Of a DNA stretch of 64,000 nucleotides, positions 16,684-32,788 are shown piece by piece. Source of the stretch: Escherichia coli (lineage in GTDB: Bacteria; Pseudomonadota; Gammaproteobacteria; Enterobacterales; Enterobacteriaceae); the NCBI RefSeq assembly GCF_030013595.1, contig NZ_CP122768.1. One strand, given 5' to 3'. The notes under the pieces were generated by a model, which searched no databases, was not told the DNA's origin, and saw nothing but the letters and a program-made list of their open reading frames with translations. Positions within the stretch are counted from its first letter, which is position 1. Each line of letters begins with the position of its first letter. A program made the translations under genes and the position numbers.

Positions 16684-20364
<3,681 letters not shown>

Positions 20365-20390
<26 letters not shown>

Positions 20391-20910
20391 TCAGCAACCC
20401 CGGTATCAGTTCATCCAGCGCGGCTGCTTTGTTCATGGCTTTGATGATATCCCGTTTCAGGAAATCAACATGTCGGTTTTCCAGTTCCGGAAAACGCCGC
20501 TGCACCGACAGGGGGATCCCGTCGAGAATACTGGCAATTTCACCTGCGATCCGCGACAGCACGAAAGTACAGAATGCGGTTTCCACCACTTCAGCGGAGT
20601 CTCTGGCATTCTTCAGTTCCTGTGCGTCGGCCTGCGCACGCGTAAGTCGATGGCGTTCGTACTCAATAGTCCCTGGCTGGAGATCTGCCTCGCTGGCCGC
20701 CCTGTAATCCTCAACCTCTTTACGGAGTTTTTCATTTTCGATATCAGCTTCCCTCTGCGCATACCACTGAATTGCCATGGCGGTATCAAATACAGATTCA
20801 ACGCCCTTACCACCTCCGGAGACGCAAGGGAGTCCCTGAGACTGCCAGCGTTCAATCGTTCGCGGATCCACGTTGAAAATTTCGGCAAGTTTCTTTTTAT
20901 TAACCTTCAT
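20365..20910 (-). CDS. Nu1: Terminase small subunit Nu1
   Basis: 181 aa, [29 protein letters not shown]... (winged HTH). Confidence 0.95.
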
Positions 20911-21110
20911 GAAACAGTCTCACAATAAATACAGGGTCCGACATGAAAGTGCCCGAAAATGACTTTTTTATGCGTTTTCATGTCGGACCTTTTACGGATT
21001 CGATATTAGAAAAAACAAATAGTTATGTTCGAGAAGTACCGACATGATTTTCCCCGGAAAATTTTCATAAATAGCGAAAACCCGCGAGGTCGCCGCCCCG
21101 TAACCTGTTG
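20911..21110 (-). other. cos region: cosB (three (T/A)CCGACATGA R-type repeats) and cosN
   Basis: The R-like repeats are near 20934, 20975 (inverted) and 21037, upstream of Nu1, as in lambda cosB. Confidence 0.85.
21087..21098 (-). other. cosN 12-nt cohesive end sequence GGGCGGCGACCT
   Basis: The plus strand reads aggtcgccgccc, which is the reverse complement of the lambda cohesive end. Confidence 0.9.
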
Positions 21111-21252
21111 GATCGACGGAAAGGACCCGTAAATGAGATGCTTTGTTGTTTTCTTGTTGGCTGTTCAACTACATGCAAGCATATGGCATAATATTTAATT
21201 GATAATCTAATAGTTATAAAAACTTGCCCCAAAACCTTAACGGAGACTAAGA

Positions 21253-21945
21253 ATGTCCAGAGAAGGAACGTTAGATTTATTGCAAGAAGTTGAAGAAACC
21301 GTTGAAATATTAAAAGATACGCAACAAATAAAACCAGTAAAGGTTAAATCAATACTTGAAAATTTAAGAAGCGCATTAGAATACGTTGCGAATGATAGTT
21401 ATGAAAAACATACCACTAACCAATCAACCCCTCGGCCAAAAATTTATTTCCCATACGGCGAGAAAAAATTTTTAGATGCTTTCTTTATTAAAAAATTAAA
21501 CTGCCAGCAACCTGAATTATCTCCATTATATGCAGTTTTTGTTTCAATCCAAGACTATCAAACTGGTAATAACTGGCTTGGAATGATGTGTAACCTCACG
21601 AACGAAGCAAAACATAGGCAACCAATCCCATTGAGTGAAGATAGTATTGTTCGAGGAATAGATGTTAATATCAATGGGTTTGGATTAATTAAGGCAGATG
21701 CTACATCAAAAATCATTTTCAGAGATAATTTCACCAATGGACAGAGAATTGAAGACTTCACCATTGAAAATGGTAAAGTTGAAAAATCAGGGAACGGAAT
21801 ACCCATCAATATTAACATGACCGAAGAGAAAAAAATAAGATTCCACGGTACAGATTATGAGGTTATTCCTTTTGTAGAGTTATGTCTAAAAGAAATAAGA
21901 GATTTTGTTAATGAAGCATATGAAATTTTAGATGCCATTGAATAA
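21253..21945 (+). CDS. Hypothetical 230-aa protein, AT-rich moron in the bor position, antisense to the late operon
   Basis: The long ORF lies in a markedly AT-rich segment. A GGAG is 7 nt upstream of the ATG. An upstream TTCAAC-17-CATAAT promoter-like element lies at about 21163-21191. I recognise no family. Confidence 0.7.
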   Translation: MSREGTLDLLQEVEETVEILKDTQQIKPVKVKSILENLRSALEYVANDSYEKHTTNQSTPRPKIYFPYGEKKFLDAFFIKKLNCQQPELSPLYAVFVSIQDYQTGNNWLGMMCNLTNEAKHRQPIPLSEDSIVRGIDVNINGFGLIKADATSKIIFRDNFTNGQRIEDFTIENGKVEKSGNGIPININMTEEKKIRFHGTDYEVIPFVELCLKEIRDFVNEAYEILDAIE

Positions 21946-22040
21946 TAATGATTAAGTAACATGGCAGGTAATCTATTTAAACCGGCCATGTTACAAATCA
22001 TTGACGTAGAGAAAAAATGTAAAGTATATCCTTTATATAC

Positions 22041-22562
22041 TCAATTGTAATTTGATGTCCTCACCGACTCATAAACGCGCTCACACGTCATTCCAGCCCG
22101 GTAGCTTTCGTCAGATCGCTCAGCATAATATCGAGCTTCTTCTGCAAGGCGGCCGAGCATGTCGGCGAGCACTGCGGCGTCGGCTCCGGCTGTTTTGCTT
22201 CTGACGGCAGCGGCAAGATCTGCGGTGTGCTTTGCGGCGTCCAGGCGGGCGGCAAGCTTTGTTGCTTCGGTGCGCAGCTGGTTAACAGTGGCAGACAGGC
22301 CAGCAGCAGTGGCAGCAGATTTAGCTGCTTGTGCTTGTGCATCTTTTACAGCCTCATCACGGGCAATTATGCGCCCTTGTTCAATCATGCGGGCTGCGGT
22401 CTGCGCGTTCGCTGTTTGCGATGATTCCGCGCTGTCACGTTCCGCCCACTTTTTTTCCCAACCGCGGCTACACCATATATTTCCAGCGATAAACGCACTG
22501 GTCACTAGTACCGCGGCAACAATAAGCTGGGAGCACAGGCTCACTGGTCTATCCCCCAGCAC
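22041..22562 (-). CDS. Rz: i-spanin Rz
   Basis: It has an N-terminal TMD ([18 protein letters not shown]) and an Ala/Gln-rich coiled coil. It overlaps the endolysin stop. Confidence 0.85.
22088..22342 (-). CDS. Rz1: o-spanin Rz1 (lipoprotein embedded in the +1 frame of Rz)
   Basis: It has the lipobox LPLLTSC and a Pro-rich mature part, and lies entirely within Rz. The true start may be internal. Confidence 0.75.
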
Positions 22563-23074
22563 GTCAACGCGCTTTCCTGATCACGGCGAATAACCTGACC
22601 GTAACAGTTATTTGAACGAATGCGGCAATCACGCCCCCTGTCCTTAATCCACCAGCGAATCGCCTCGCATGCACCTTTACGATCACCAGCATTCAGCCGC
22701 TTATAAAACGTCGACGGAAAACACTTACCGGGGCCAATGTTATAGGGACAAAATGACGCGATACCCGCTTTCTGCGGTTCGGTCAGTGGTACTTTAATAT
22801 TGCGCTCCACCCATGCCAGCGCCTTATCACGTTCAATGGCGTTCACACGGTTGCATTTTTCCCTAGACAACTTCATGCCGGGAACAACAGGCTTACCGTC
22901 CACCAGAATGGCACCACGGCAGATGGTCCAGATACCAGTACCATCACGGTATGCCGTGGTGTGGTTACCTTCTTTTTCGTCCAGAAACTGGTCGAGAATA
23001 TCAGGCGCAGGCGCACCGACGGCAATCAGTGCCAGAACGGCAGCTGACAGGCCGTATTTGATTTTTGCATTCAT
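22541..23074 (-). CDS. R: SAR (signal-anchor-release) endolysin, T4-lysozyme fold
   Basis: 177 aa with a weakly hydrophobic Gly/Ala-rich N-terminus, [17 protein letters not shown]. The motif [16 protein letters not shown] fits the E-D-T triad spacing. It is paired with a pinholin. Confidence 0.85.
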
Positions 23075-23201
23075 GGATATTTATCAGGATTTATCAGTTT
23101 CTAATCTATAGATATGTTAAGCACTCAGCCCGTCAGTGGTGGATACTGGCGTATGTAATAAAGGGGGGATGGCTGATTACCTCTGATAAGGGAATGTAAC
23201 T

Positions 23202-23498
23202 ATGAACGGTATAGATCCATTCAAACCAATCAGTAAGCAACTTGATGTGGTATTACCACAACTGATAAAACACGACGACCTTCTGGATAAAGTGTTGCCT
23301 TTTTATATTGCTGTTACCGCAAAATTATCAGGTAAAACTCGAGAAGAGGTTCTCAAATATAACATGCTGGCTTTAGAAACAATTTTTGGCTCAGAAAAAG
23401 CGGGAAAATCACCCAAAGAGCTGGCAGAATCTCAATTTGCTTATATGACAAATATAAGAGTATCCGAAATCTTTGATAAGCTACCAGACATTGAATAA
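23202..23498 (+). CDS. Hypothetical 98-aa protein (between endolysin and holin, opposite strand)
   Basis: AAGGGA lies 8 nt upstream of the ATG. The sequence is AT-rich and looks helical. A hairpin plus T-tract starts 6 nt after the stop. Confidence 0.55.
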   Translation: MNGIDPFKPISKQLDVVLPQLIKHDDLLDKVLPFYIAVTAKLSGKTREEVLKYNMLALETIFGSEKAGKSPKELAESQFAYMTNIRVSEIFDKLPDIE

Positions 23499-23503
23499 TT
23501 TCT

Positions 23504-23523
23504 AAGCGGCAGTAATGCCGCTT
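23504..23523. terminator. Hairpin shared by the convergent orf98 and orf72
   Basis: AAGCGGC-agtaat-GCCGCTT is followed on the plus strand by tatatttttt. Confidence 0.6.
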
Positions 23524-23741
23524 TATATTTTTTCAGCCAAATTTTTCAAGAACTGTTTGGCATGTTTTACCGCAGTAACTTCATAATAATCCAAGCCAGC
23601 TCCTTCAAGTCGCTCAAGGGTGATGTTCAGATCAAAAATTTCACCGGCAAAATGTTCTTTGTCCTGTAACGTTAAGATTACCGTAACTTTATTCTCAAAA
23701 TTGCGGATCCCTTTCACAATCAGTTCATAGTTTTGAGTCAT
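23523..23741 (-). CDS. Hypothetical 72-aa protein immediately downstream of the holin
   Basis: The ATG is 4 nt after the holin stop and is preceded by GGGGAGAG, the SD position normally used by the endolysin gene. MTQNYELIVKGIRNFENKVTVILTLQDKEHF... Confidence 0.6.
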   Translation of the reverse strand: MTQNYELIVKGIRNFENKVTVILTLQDKEHFAGEIFDLNITLERLEGAGLDYYEVTAVKHAKQFLKNLAEKI

Positions 23742-23745
23742 TGAA

Positions 23746-23961
23746 TTACTCTCCCCGTGCAGCCTTTCGTCTGTCTTCTCTGATTTTGAAATACAGATTT
23801 GTCAGATAAGTCAAAAAGCCCAGAACTAGACTTCCCAGCACACCAATTGCAGCCCACTGTGACGGACTGACCTGATCCAACCACTGCAAAAACCAGTATC
23901 CCGCACTACCAGCGGATGTTCCGTAGGCAATGCCAGTTGAGATTTTGTCCATTGATTTCAT
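23746..23961 (-). CDS. S: Phage-21-type pinholin S (dual-start S71/S68)
   Basis: [71 protein letters not shown] matches S21 as I recall it. It has Met1/Met4 dual starts and a GGAGG SD. Confidence 0.9.
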
Positions 23962-24079: not shown

Positions 24080-24155
24080 TGGTGCTGGTTAACGGACTTG
24101 AACCGCTACCCATTCGCTTACAAGGCGACCGCTCTACCATTGGAGCTAAACCAGC
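24080..24155 (-). tRNA. tRNA, hand-folded anticodon UGU (Thr)
   Basis: 76 nt. GCTGGTT acceptor; GCTC/GAGC D-stem; anticodon loop CTTGTAA; T-arm AGCGG-TTCAAGT-CCGTT; AACCAGC-A-CCA 3' end encoded. There is one G:A mismatch at 27:43. Confidence 0.75.
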
Positions 24156-24160
24156 ATATT

Positions 24161-24235
24161 TGGCGGGACAGCGTGGACTCGAACCACGATAAGAAGGTTA
24201 ACAGCCTTCCGTAATGACCTTTATACGACTGACCC
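24161..24235 (-). tRNA. tRNA, hand-folded anticodon GUU (Asn)
   Basis: 75 nt. Anticodon arm GAAGG-CTGTTAA-CCTTC; T-arm CGTGG-TTCGAGT-CCACG; CCA encoded. The acceptor stem has a T:T mismatch at 4:69 and the D-stem is weak. Confidence 0.65.
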
Positions 24236-24509: not shown

Positions 24510-25133
24510 CTAACGTGTGACCGCATTCAAAATGTTGTCTGCGATTGACTCTTCTTTGTGGCATTGCACCACCAGAGCGTCATACAGCGGCTTAACAGTG
24601 CGTGACCAGGTGGGTTGAGTAAGGTTTGGGATTAGCATCGTTACAGCGCGATATGCGGCGCTTGCTGGCATTCTTGAATAGCCGACACCTTTGCATCTTC
24701 CGCACTCTTTCTCAACAACTCTCCCCCACTGCTCTGTTTTGGCTATATCAACCGCACGGCCTGTACCGTGGCAATCTCTGCATCTTGCGCCCGGCGTCGC
24801 GGCACTACGGCAATAATCCGCATAAGCGAATGTTGCGAGCACTTGCAGTACCTTTGCCTTAGTATTTCCTTCAAGCTTTGCCACACCACGGTATTTCCCC
24901 GATACCTTGTGTGCAAATTGCATCAGATAGTTGATAGCCTTTTGTTTGTCGTTCTGGCTGAGTTCATGCTTACCGCAGAATGCAGCCATACCGAATCCGG
25001 CTTGTGATTGCGCCATCCCCATAGCAGCCATCACATCAGTACCGGAAAGAGAGTCAGAAGCTGTAGCCCGTGGTGAGTCGCTCATCATCGGGCTTTTTGG
25101 AGAATGAAATTTAGCTACGCTTTCGAGTCTCAT
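24510..25133 (-). CDS. Q: Late antiterminator Q (lambda type)
   Basis: 207 aa, MRLESVAKFHSPKSPMMSDSPRATASDSLSGTDVMAAMGMAQSQ..., with the zinc motif CRDCHGTG...CGRCKG. Confidence 0.95.
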   Translation of the reverse strand: MRLESVAKFHSPKSPMMSDSPRATASDSLSGTDVMAAMGMAQSQAGFGMAAFCGKHELSQNDKQKAINYLMQFAHKVSGKYRGVAKLEGNTKAKVLQVLATFAYADYCRSAATPGARCRDCHGTGRAVDIAKTEQWGRVVEKECGRCKGVGYSRMPASAAYRAVTMLIPNLTQPTWSRTVKPLYDALVVQCHKEESIADNILNAVTR

Positions 25134-31033: not shown

Positions 31034-31143
31034 ATGCCCTCCATAGTAACCTCGAATAAAAAATACAATATGTACTTTCCAAATACAAGCAAAAATACAC
31101 ATTGTGCATTGATGGTTCCAGTACAGAGCGTAATAATAAGGAC
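31034..31143. promoter_or_regulatory. OR/pR/pRM divergent control region with A(A/G)TAC-N5-GTAYT-type operators
   Basis: AATACAATATGTACT at 31062-31076, with related copies at 31082-31096 and 31094-31110. TTGATG-16-TAATAA ends 7 nt before the cI ATG, which suggests a leaderless cI mRNA as in lambda. Confidence 0.6.
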
Positions 31144-31803
31144 ATGAAAATGAAATGGTATGAACTGGCTAGATCCAGAATGAAAGAGCTCGGCATAACT
31201 CAAGAGAAGTTAGCCGAAGAGCTAGGTATGACGCAGGGTGGGATTGGACACTGGTTGCGCGGATCTCGTCATCCATCTCTTAGTGATATTGGTGTGGTGT
31301 TTAAATACCTTGGTATTGATAACATATCATTCAACCACGACGGGACATTTTCACCTGTTGGCGAATACTCATCGGCCCCAGTTAAAAAACAATATGAGTA
31401 CCCTGTATTTTCTCATGTTCAGGCTGGGATGTTCTCTCCAGAACTCAGAACCTTTACCAAAGGCGATGCGGAGAGATTGGTAAGCACAACCAAAAAAGCC
31501 AGTGGCTCTGCATTCTGGCTTGAGGTTGAAGGTAATTCCATGACCGCACCAACAGGATCCAAGCCCAGCTTTCCTGACGGGATGTTAATTCTGGTTGACC
31601 CTGAGCAGGCTGTTGAGCCAGGCGATTTCTGTATAGCCAGACTTGGTGGTGATGAGTTTACCTTCAAGAAACTGATCAGGGATAGCGGTCAGGTGTTTCT
31701 ACAGCCACTAAACCCACAATACCCAATGATCCCATGCAATGAGAGTTGTTCCGTTGTGGGGAAAGTTATCGCTAGTCAGTGGCCTGAAGAGACGTTTGGG
31801 TGA
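31144..31803 (+). CDS. cI: CI repressor: non-lambda N-terminal HTH domain fused to a lambda-type C-terminal LexA-like autocleavage domain
   Basis: The start is [37 protein letters not shown]. From [21 protein letters not shown] onward it is essentially lambda CI, including the Ala-Gly cleavage site, GNSM Ser and FKKL Lys. Confidence 0.9.
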
Positions 31804-31930: not shown

Positions 31931-32788
31931 ATGAAGAAAGCAGCAATTTTAATTGATGCGGGTTTTTTCATGCAGCGTGTTCATGCTACGCATCGTAAAC
32001 ACTTCGCCGAGCATGAACTGACTGCGCAATGCATAATGAAAGTAATATGGTCAATGGTTCTTTCCCATCTTAATGGAAAACGTCAATCACAAGAACGTAG
32101 GGAACCGCTTGAGCTTTATAGAATTTACTTCTATGACTGTCCACCACTCGACATTCAAACACGCCTTCCACTTCCTGAGCCTGGCAATAAGACGCCTGGT
32201 CGCAAGAATTTCAAACTCGAAAAATCATATATTCTGAGAACGGAGCTGCATGAAGAGTTAAGAAAAACTCGAAAAACAGCCTTAAGATTAGGGAATCTTG
32301 TTGATAATAAGCGATGGCAACTAACTACATTCTCCCTTGATGCTCTGATGAAAGGAACGAAAAAATGGGATGAACTGACAAATGATGATTTTTACTATGA
32401 CATCAAACAAAAACAAGTTGATATCAAGCTAGGGATGGATATCACGACTTTAGCTTATGAAAAACTTGTTGATGTAATTGTCCTTGTTGCTGGGGACTCA
32501 GACTTTGTGCCTGCCGCCAAACACGCCAGAATTAAAGGTATTGATTTTATTCTTGATCCACTAAGACAGAATGTTACCCCATCACTGTCAGAGCACATTG
32601 ATGGAGTTCAGTCATACAGCTTGATATCAGGACTTGCCGATGCTTTACATGTTGAGCCAGACCCGGCACCTGACTGGTGGGAAGATCGAAAAAAAGGCAA
32701 GCCTAGAGGAAAAAACAATAGCGGTAAACGCAGGTATGGAAACACTCAAGCTGAGTCAGCAAAGAAACATCAAAGAAATAAACGATAA
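31931..32788 (+). CDS. NYN/LabA-like (PIN-fold) putative ribonuclease with a Lys/Arg-rich C-terminal tail, in the rexAB position
   Basis: 285 aa with the motifs AAILIDAGFF, VDIKLGMDITT and VIVLVAGDSDFVPAAKHARIKGIDFIL. The tail is KKGKPRGKNNSGKRRYGNTQAESAKKHQRNKR. AT-rich. The family was assigned by eye only. Confidence 0.7.
   Translation: MKKAAILIDAGFFMQRVHATHRKHFAEHELTAQCIMKVIWSMVLSHLNGKRQSQERREPLELYRIYFYDCPPLDIQTRLPLPEPGNKTPGRKNFKLEKSYILRTELHEELRKTRKTALRLGNLVDNKRWQLTTFSLDALMKGTKKWDELTNDDFYYDIKQKQVDIKLGMDITTLAYEKLVDVIVLVAGDSDFVPAAKHARIKGIDFILDPLRQNVTPSLSEHIDGVQSYSLISGLADALHVEPDPAPDWWEDRKKGKPRGKNNSGKRRYGNTQAESAKKHQRNKR

Follow-up and report, generated by a model that had tools for sequence, protein, structure and literature searches.

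The gene analysed here resembles HepS (STM14_3211) of the Salmonella prophage Gifsy-1, a solo HEPN anticodon nuclease acting by abortive infection, which is made constitutively as an inactive tetramer, is switched on by tail-tip proteins of Siphoviridae and then cleaves tRNA anticodon loops (PMC13043305). HEPN domains are four-helix bundles that often have inserts separating helix 2 from helix 3. Helix 3 ends in an Rx4-6H motif, whose arginine is followed by a polar residue (N, D or H), and helix 2 carries a conserved acidic residue, usually as E-x3-[KR] (2013 survey, PMC3710099). The same survey describes deviations from this scheme: in Csx1 a beta hairpin comes straight after the motif, HEPN domains of the Parep1/8 type keep the histidine, have lost the arginine, carry other conserved basic residues and are still predicted to be active, and domains without the motif can be binding domains (PMC3710099). 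Here we describe a 230-codon gene, hereafter the cargo gene, in a 64,000-nucleotide stretch of Escherichia coli DNA (contig NZ_CP122768.1 of assembly GCF_030013595.1; hereafter the window). It lies between the Rz gene and the cos site of a lambda-like prophage, is a real gene under purifying selection and belongs to a large family of mobile, single-gene cargo. Its product is predicted to have a HEPN-like fold, and we tentatively read it as a lysogen-expressed, non-canonical HEPN-like abortive-infection effector of the HepS kind, a reading that is possible rather than secure.

Like HepS, the cargo gene occupies an accessory slot of a lambdoid prophage, stands alone without a partner and encodes fewer than 250 amino acids with a HEPN-type bundle, which in the cargo protein is predicted. 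The two differ in the motif, which is the canonical R100-x4-H105 in HepS and T/N/V-N-x2-K-H, without arginine, in the cargo family. Also unlike HepS, the cargo protein has a beta insert of 70 residues after the motif. With the arginine absent and no sequence match of the cargo protein to any PDB chain, we do not count it as a HepS. As in Parep1/8-type domains, the histidine at the end of helix 3 is kept, the arginine is not, and other basic residues are present (K120, R39 and K32 in the cargo protein). The families of the HEPN survey resemble the cargo family in the insert between helices 2 and 3 and in the acidic residue of helix 2 (PMC3710099), whereas no sequence or profile relation links them to it, and only Csx1, with its beta hairpin, has anything at the place of the large beta module that follows the motif in the cargo protein. 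RnlA/LsoA, PrrC/RloC and HepT, which combine a canonical Rx4-6H with a partner (an antitoxin, a restriction-modification system or MNT), are unlike the cargo protein.

A widespread protein family with a predicted HEPN-like fold

The cargo protein matches PHROG 13652, annotated as 'unknown function', along its whole length (E = 8.7e-107), residues 1-229 aligning with positions 1-230 of the 230-position profile. An exhaustive profile search returned 759 cluster representatives at E ≤ 0.001, 323 of them at E ≤ 1e-10 and nearly all 220-250 amino acids long; they stand for clusters at 50% identity, of which the family has at least 759. Among 5.8 billion proteins searched there are 59 close Enterobacteriaceae homologues of 225-244 amino acids (33-96% identity), all labelled hypothetical. 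A preliminary description of the locus, made without database searches, had called the gene an orphan, a label that these matches overturn. In two other respects its expectation of a novel gene held up: no characterised conversion or defence family was matched, and the gene is conserved in relatives. Members occur in Proteobacteria, Bacteroidota and Bacillota (Bacillus), among them Acinetobacter, Neisseria, Rouxiella, Siccibacter, Rheinheimera, Marinospirillum, Chryseobacterium, Bacteroidales, Cupriavidus, Caballeronia, Pseudomonas, Vibrio and plasmids of Bacillus. The identical sequence (A0A2S8JK74, 'uncharacterized') is found on 52 contigs, and its 90% cluster has members from E. coli, E. 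fergusonii and Citrobacter freundii. The query protein matches no Pfam, NCBIfam or PADLOC entry, no Pfam or PADLOC model is matched by any of 126 diverse members, and a full-text literature search with the PHROG number and WP_073528137, a near-identical homologue, found no paper. Solo HEPN defences in prophages are known already; what sets the cargo gene apart is the large unannotated family, its unusual motif without arginine and the inserted variable module.

In 11 orthologues with DNA sequence, synonymous sites are saturated (proportion of synonymous differences, pS, ~0.78) while the nonsynonymous proportion (pN) is only 0.28, giving an overall pN/pS of 0.36. The cargo gene is therefore under purifying selection, which excludes that the open reading frame (ORF) is not a gene. 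Constraint is uneven along the protein, with pN/pS of 0.11-0.12 in helices 2 and 3 (0.11 in helix 2) versus 0.48 in the beta module.

The same division is seen at the protein level. The AlphaFold2 model, computed from a 30-sequence alignment (predicted local distance difference score, pLDDT, 89.6; predicted TM-score, pTM, 0.75), has four helices, a partly helical insert between the second and the third, and a beta-rich module between the third and the fourth (Table 1). Conservation was measured on an alignment of 126 diverse members; a 30-member alignment served in the search for related loci. Conservation peaks in two places, helix 2 and the run into and through helix 3. In helix 2, K32 (0.91), E36 (0.85), R39 (0.95), S40 (0.93) and Y44 (0.92) accompany the fully conserved L42 (1.0) and D/E43 (1.0; 126/126). 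In helix 3 the corresponding residues are W108 (0.91), L109, N117 (0.93), K120 (0.99; 125/126) and H121 (1.0; 126/126), and the run into this helix also has conserved F66-P67 and Q100 (0.99). Across phyla, 14 polar or charged positions vary little or not at all. By its entropy (3.12 bits, with one conserved column out of 71) the beta module stands at the other end of the scale.

The predicted fold is a HEPN-like four-helix bundle. Matches of the model to HEPN structures align 111-120 residues, versus about 90 for matches to HPt domains, which rank below the top HEPN matches. The latter matches nevertheless raise the question of whether the protein could be an HPt/CheA-P1-like histidine-phosphotransfer domain, or some other unrelated four-helix bundle, with the conserved histidine serving a different chemistry. 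Apart from the shorter and lower-ranked alignments, the position of that residue speaks against this: the histidine of HPt domains lies mid-helix in an H-x-x-K-G context, whereas here it closes helix 3 after N-x-x-K, which is the HEPN position. In addition, there are no two-component genes among the conserved neighbours, and we consider a phosphotransfer domain or other unrelated bundle scarcely probable at all.

Several sequence features of the family agree with a HEPN-like assignment. T-N-x-x-K-H closes helix 3, where HEPN domains have their Rx4-6H, with N117 at -4 from the invariant H121; between helices 2 and 3 there is a long insert; and helix 2 has the invariant acidic D/E43, its spacing being E-x2-R and R-x3-[DE], unlike the typical E-x3-[KR]. 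The HEPN motif is only partly present, because T, N or V occupies position 116 in 126/126 members and positions 114-115 have no conserved basic residues. K120 and R39, as well as K32, are candidate stand-ins for the missing arginine. Because the predicted fold and two of the three sequence hallmarks agree and the canonical motif does not, the cargo protein is described here as HEPN-like and not filed as an established HEPN member.

Such a protein need not be an enzyme. The bundle and the beta module might bind nucleic acid or protein without cleaving RNA, and the product, acting stoichiometrically, could then bring about superinfection exclusion, modulate a host pathway or protect the prophage from another defence system. 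The missing catalytic arginine of Rx4-6H fits such a role, as do the precedent of motif-less HEPN domains that bind (PMC3710099), the solo position of the gene, with no antitoxin-like partner in most loci, and the absence of any evident toxicity-limiting neighbour. However, the 14 near-invariant polar or charged positions, H121, K120, Q100, R39 and D/E43 among them, are more typical of an enzyme, and Parep1/8 domains are likewise without the arginine yet predicted to be active (PMC3710099). A non-catalytic, binding role thus appears unlikely, if well short of implausible.

The cos-proximal slot and the contexts of homologues

The window is E. coli chromosome with a lambda-like prophage, and the flank genes ybhJ and ybhI lie near the lambda attachment site. 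The ybhJ/ybhI flank is 100% identical to E. coli genomes, and the prophage genes in the window include a lambda-type integrase, cI, cII, N, RecT, Q, a Rha/ANT antirepressor and lom. The cargo gene is the single long ORF of an AT-rich island and lies on the plus strand, whereas every neighbouring gene (Nu1, gpA, Rz/Rz1 and endolysin) is on the minus strand. G+C content is 0.30-0.34 over positions 21150-22050 as against 0.52-0.58 in the flanks, and 0.326 in the cargo gene as against 0.51-0.56 in Nu1, gpA, Rz and R; at third codon positions (GC3) the contrast is between 0.255 in the cargo gene and 0.50-0.62 in the flanking late genes. On its left the slot is limited by cosN, whose 12-nt sequence GGGCGGCGACCT we take to be the lambda cohesive end. 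The adjoining cosQ segment (21100-21138) is common to about 1100 E. coli prophages in the 5426 complete E. coli genomes searched, in contrast to near-identical copies of the island, which occur in just 4 of these genomes.

In phage 21 and in a prophage of Nissle 1917, bor/iss is found directly after Rz, on the opposite strand and before cos, and the slot also carries TonB-like ORFs. The contents of the slot differ again in E. coli prophages whose Rz is related, being a kinase paired with a PP2C phosphatase, a DUF6575 protein or small unknown genes. The Rz-to-cos slot is thus a variable cargo site. The kinase/phosphatase pair was seen in E. coli 99RCEF (locus L073, 1755-3259), where it fills the Rz-to-terminase slot; it recalls the Ser/Thr-kinase exclusion systems of prophages, such as Stk of 933W. 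The presence of this pair supports the view of the lysis-packaging junction as a cargo hotspot.

Bor/Iss and the cargo gene share the slot directly after Rz, the opposite strand and the nature of an AT-rich single-gene cargo beside cos. Their products differ: Bor/Iss is an outer-membrane lipoprotein of about 97 amino acids with a signal peptide and a lipobox, whereas the cargo protein, 230 amino acids long, bears no similarity to it and gave no match to the Pfam family Lambda_Bor. Signal peptide, lipobox and membrane helix were all absent, the maximum 19-residue Kyte-Doolittle hydropathy being 0.77 and the N-terminus acidic. Since it is acidic (pI 5.0) and without a hydrophobic segment, the cargo protein is taken to be cytoplasmic and unlike Bor. 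In all these points the preliminary description proved accurate: it had reported an AT-rich segment between cosN and the Rz stop at 22041, one long ORF opposite to the late genes with GGAG 7 nt before its ATG, the position of the bor moron and a product without signal peptide or lipobox, and the comparison of composition and codon usage that it proposed sets the cargo gene apart from the late genes, as given above.

The known role of bor/iss is serum resistance, and their sharing of slot and orientation with the cargo gene suggests a factor for lysogenic conversion or host fitness that has nothing to do with phages, for example a cytoplasmic protein of the stress response or one that modulates growth. 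Other facts would suit this as well. All 4 complete-genome copies of the window's allele lie in a decayed prophage remnant near paoCD in which Nu1 is fused to tail-fibre fragments (e.g. loci L001 of E. coli S43 and L002 of MB06022), the intact prophage of the window being in none of those 4 genomes, and in 3 of the 4 the gene has stayed intact; some homologues elsewhere have housekeeping neighbourhoods. On the other hand, the lack of signal peptide, lipobox and membrane segment rules out a surface factor, the presence of the family in environmental bacteria of several phyla argues against a role specific to host animals, and the HEPN-like fold together with the P2 hotspot described below points to conflict systems. 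A conversion or fitness factor is accordingly an improbable explanation. A second E. coli allele, 62% identical, is present in 98 of the 5426 genomes, in the same Rz-to-Nu1-like slot in the one locus examined; together the two alleles searched account for about 2% of complete E. coli genomes.

In its various contexts the gene is solo and placed on mobile elements, namely prophages, plasmids and islands. It is found on the opposite strand at the lysis-terminase junction in six genera, whose prophages are lambda-like, HK97-like or of other types. In Enterobacter, Cronobacter, Citrobacter, Raoultella and metagenomic prophages it stands between spanin/endolysin and HNH/small-terminase genes, again on the opposite strand. 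Neither the flanking lysis enzymes (lysozyme, GH19, GH108) nor the terminases (lambda gpA/Nu1 versus HK97-type TerL/HNH) are of one kind. The gene is also carried by 35 IMG/VR viral contigs, on which its commonest neighbours are HNH, GH19, Terminase_4, Nu1/gpA and Rz. So consistent an association with lysis and packaging genes would be expected of an accessory of the lytic cycle, involved in packaging, lysis timing or take-over and merely encoded on the other strand. We regard this as very unlikely. The gene lies antisense to the late transcript that depends on Q, and Rz is convergent with it; the lysis and terminase modules around it are of unrelated types, so that it has no conserved partner among them; it also occurs on plasmids, on islands and in prophage early regions; and its absence from 50,697 sequenced phage genomes marks it as dispensable. 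The family thus occurs in the 35 IMG/VR contigs and many prophages, yet in 0/50,697 deposited phage genomes, a difference that may be due to biased sampling or to loss during phage propagation.

A further context is of particular relevance to function. A Rouxiella prophage of the P2 type and one IMG/VR contig have the homologue between the portal gene gpQ and the replication gene A. The cos-proximal old/tin locus of P2 is an experimentally validated anti-phage hotspot (Rousset et al. 2022, PMC9122126), and the Rouxiella homologue, at 32% identity, sits exactly there; both that hotspot and the slot in the window adjoin cos. The likeness goes no further, in that the family has no match among the PADLOC models of hotspot systems and the element in the window is lambda-like, not P2-like. 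One homologue, encoded on the opposite strand, belongs to the early-left region of a prophage of Pseudomonas veronii, and another shares an island of Cupriavidus with integrase, resolvase and Mrr. Further copies are found at a prophage end in Caballeronia; about 3 kb from an integrase in Chryseobacterium; on plasmids of Bacillus pseudomycoides; and in Siccibacter on a contig that also bears an IncFII RepA gene, which suggests a plasmid. The survey of neighbourhoods that the preliminary description had called for thus leads to mobile cargo slots, the old/tin hotspot of P2 included.

We also considered a type I restriction-modification operon setting, as for prrC, for the homologues of Rouxiella and Neisseria. 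It was rejected: by Pfam, the neighbours are a P2 terminase, portal and gpA in the former and an AMP-binding enzyme and an ABC ATPase in the latter. No conserved partner gene was found in the loci compared; a 485-aa neighbour and an 86-aa downstream ORF are each limited to subsets. The former, without Pfam or PADLOC match, is divergent from the homologue and lies about 90-280 bp upstream of it in HK97-like prophages of the Enterobacter type (L003, 4455-5912, minus strand; also L027, L051, L052 and L058). Since it is not in all loci it is not an obligate partner, and it may be further cargo. The 86-aa ORF overlaps the stop codon of the homologue by 4 nt on the same strand in one clade, 51% identical to the query (L027, 5690-5950, and L028, 1627-1887, both on the plus strand). 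It gave no PADLOC match and could be a clade-specific partner, e.g. an antitoxin or a modulator. The window has no room for it, because only 95 nt separate the stop of the cargo gene from Rz.

Candidate expression signals and a proposed mode of action

A ribosome-binding sequence (AAGG, GGAG or GAGG) is present inside the final 20 nt before the ATG at 20/20 orthologous loci inspected. Promoter assignment is less straightforward. The TTCAAC-17-CATAAT site that had been placed at about 21163-21191 does exist, one base further on (Table 1). It is unlisted in a stricter promoter scan and is not conserved across orthologous loci. Nearer the ATG, the ATAGTTATAAAAA box provides an alternative -10 candidate, and the TAGnTATAAnAT element can be aligned among the orthologous loci of E. 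coli, Enterobacter and Cronobacter despite their differing flanks. Both the site first noted and the conserved box are candidate promoter elements. Directly after the stop codon is a strong hairpin, which is possibly a terminator or a 3' stabiliser. The 106-nt segment holding it (21940-22045) folds with a free energy of -29 kcal/mol (z = -6.6; 0/200 shuffles fold equally well). The hairpin is without a U tract, a consensus terminator scan found 0 sites, and an Rfam scan of positions 20800-22200 gave only a chance microRNA match far under its threshold. Within the coding region of the beta module there is, in addition, an 18-nt inverted repeat (21662-21679 and 21801-21818, 89% complementary, 121 nt apart), which may be due to chance in AT-rich DNA. 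Sequence motifs of this kind, which are common in AT-rich DNA, suggest that the cargo gene may be expressed in the lysogen.

The abortive-infection reading would combine these elements as follows. The island would be a self-contained moron, with one gene, its own translation start, promoter-like sites and a 3' hairpin, antisense to the late operon in the cos-proximal slot. The effector would be made in the lysogen and kept inactive. The variable beta module, about 70 residues placed right after the motif, might sense a component of a superinfecting phage, and sensing would activate the conserved core, most probably an RNase that needs no metal, so that translation stops and the infection aborts. 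The logic proposed for the cargo protein, constitutive and inactive until a phage protein is sensed, is the same as that of HepS. We arrive at this reading because of the split between conserved core and variable insert, the predicted fold, the placement as mobile solo cargo, a validated hotspot included, and the HepS precedent. Defence is favoured over host interaction because of the HEPN-like predicted fold and the homologue in the old/tin hotspot of P2.

A number of results pull in the opposite direction. The canonical Rx4-6H lacks its arginine, position 116 never being R, and no relation to HEPN proteins was recovered by sequence, profile or Foldseek searches: PDB profile searches (phmmer and hmmsearch) gave no HEPN chain at E ≤ 10, hhalign against E. 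coli RnlA a probability of 0.06 and no link, Foldseek against the PDB nothing significant, and Pfam searches with the query and the 126 members no HEPN family at E ≤ 0.1. Among the 5027 defence protein models of PADLOC-DB v2.0 the query found chance-level matches only (BrxC, E = 0.0077 over 45 residues), which did not recur among the 126 members, none of which matches any PADLOC model. A tblastn search of 50,697 deposited GenBank/INPHARED phage genomes returned no homologue. Acinetobacter and Neisseria have a few copies amid housekeeping genes, and one of the 4 remnant copies in E. coli is split by IS1 with an adjacent IS3. The promoter-like sites of the scan, 5 found versus 4.6 expected, are at chance level for AT-rich DNA.

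A wider proposition is correspondingly more doubtful, namely that the cargo protein is the first representative of a phylogenetically broad and hitherto undescribed family of anti-phage effectors made up of a single gene, with an arginine-less HEPN-like nuclease core (N-x2-K-H and the helix-2 R/acidic pair) and with the beta module as a built-in phage sensor or autoinhibitor, riding in the cos-proximal slots of unrelated prophages. Were the protein an anti-phage effector, a compact defence family would have been wholly missed by PADLOC, Pfam and NCBIfam. The HEPN scaffold would be seen to work without its signature arginine and, with a sensor module next to the active site, escape mutants could reveal how the trigger is recognised. 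The Rz-to-cos junction of lambdoid and HK97-like prophages would stand out as a cargo hotspot to be mined, as was done with the cos-proximal hotspots of P2 and P4. If the function is not defence, the gene is still a conserved, mobile one of the lysogen side.

Feature coordinates and other candidate cargo in the prophage

Table 1. Positions in the window of the cargo gene, its signals, the parts of its product and the neighbouring features
Feature	Position	Strand	Residues	Basis or remark
Cargo gene, coding sequence with ATG start, 230 aa, 26.4 kDa, pI 5.0, PHROG 13652, UniProt A0A2S8JK74	21253..21945	+		ORF list, profile match
Shine-Dalgarno GGAG, 7 nt 5' of ATG	21242..21245	+		Sequence reading
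Candidate sigma-70 promoter TTCAAC-17-(TGg)CATAAT, extended -10	21164..21192	+		Top-scoring site in upstream 180 nt
ATAGTTATAAAAA box, alternative -10 candidate, ~35 nt 5' of ATG	21210..21222	+		Cross-species alignment
Strong hairpin directly 3' of stop, core arms 21956-21969 and 21981-21994	21946..22003	+		Inverted repeat I4; folding
Helix 1			3-23	AlphaFold2 model
Helix 2			28-53	AlphaFold2 model
Helix-2 motif K-x3-E-x2-R-S-x-L-[DE]-Y	21346..21384	+	32-44	126-member conservation
Partly helical insert			54-107	AlphaFold2 model
Helix 3, T-N-x-x-K-H motif at its end	21574..21615	+	108-121	AlphaFold2 limits
Beta-rich module (~70 residues), inserted, most variable part	21631..21843	+	127-197	AlphaFold2 model
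Helix 4			204-227	AlphaFold2 model
AT-rich cargo island, ~32% GC, ~900 bp	21140..22040			Composition profile; bounded by cos and Rz stop
cosN, 12-nt cohesive end, left slot limit	21087..21098	-		Single exact match within window; 0/100 shuffles
cosQ-containing right-end segment	21100..21138			39 bases, 94.9% identity to phage 21, whose annotated cosQ falls inside the match
Nu1	20365-20910	-		Flank of cargo gene
gpA	18465-20390	-		Flank of cargo gene
Rz i-spanin, DUF2514 type, right slot limit, convergent with cargo gene	22041..22562	-		DUF2514 in near-identical E. coli S43 locus
Rz1 lipoprotein	22088-22342	-		Embedded in Rz
Endolysin	22541-23074	-

Further candidate cargo was noticed elsewhere in the prophage. 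Directly downstream of cI (31102-31803) and on the same strand, a 285-aa ORF with an NYN (RNase) domain occupies positions 31931-32788 (plus strand). In lambda, this place 3' of cI is that of rexAB. The ORF has a weak PADLOC match to the hotspot candidate HEC-09 (E = 2e-4) and could be a second lysogen-expressed defence candidate in the prophage.

The lysis cassette holds a second AT-rich island, between endolysin and holin (23100-23750, G+C content 0.35-0.40), with a 98-aa ORF antisense to the lysis genes (23202-23498, plus strand; PHROG 25324, unknown function) and a 72-aa ORF of the DUF1327/YdfR family (23523-23741, minus strand). Between the holin and the Q antiterminator gene (24510-25133), tRNA-Thr(TGT) and tRNA-Asn(GTT) stand in tandem on the minus strand (24080-24235); these tRNAs are phage-borne and lie at the start of the late transcript.

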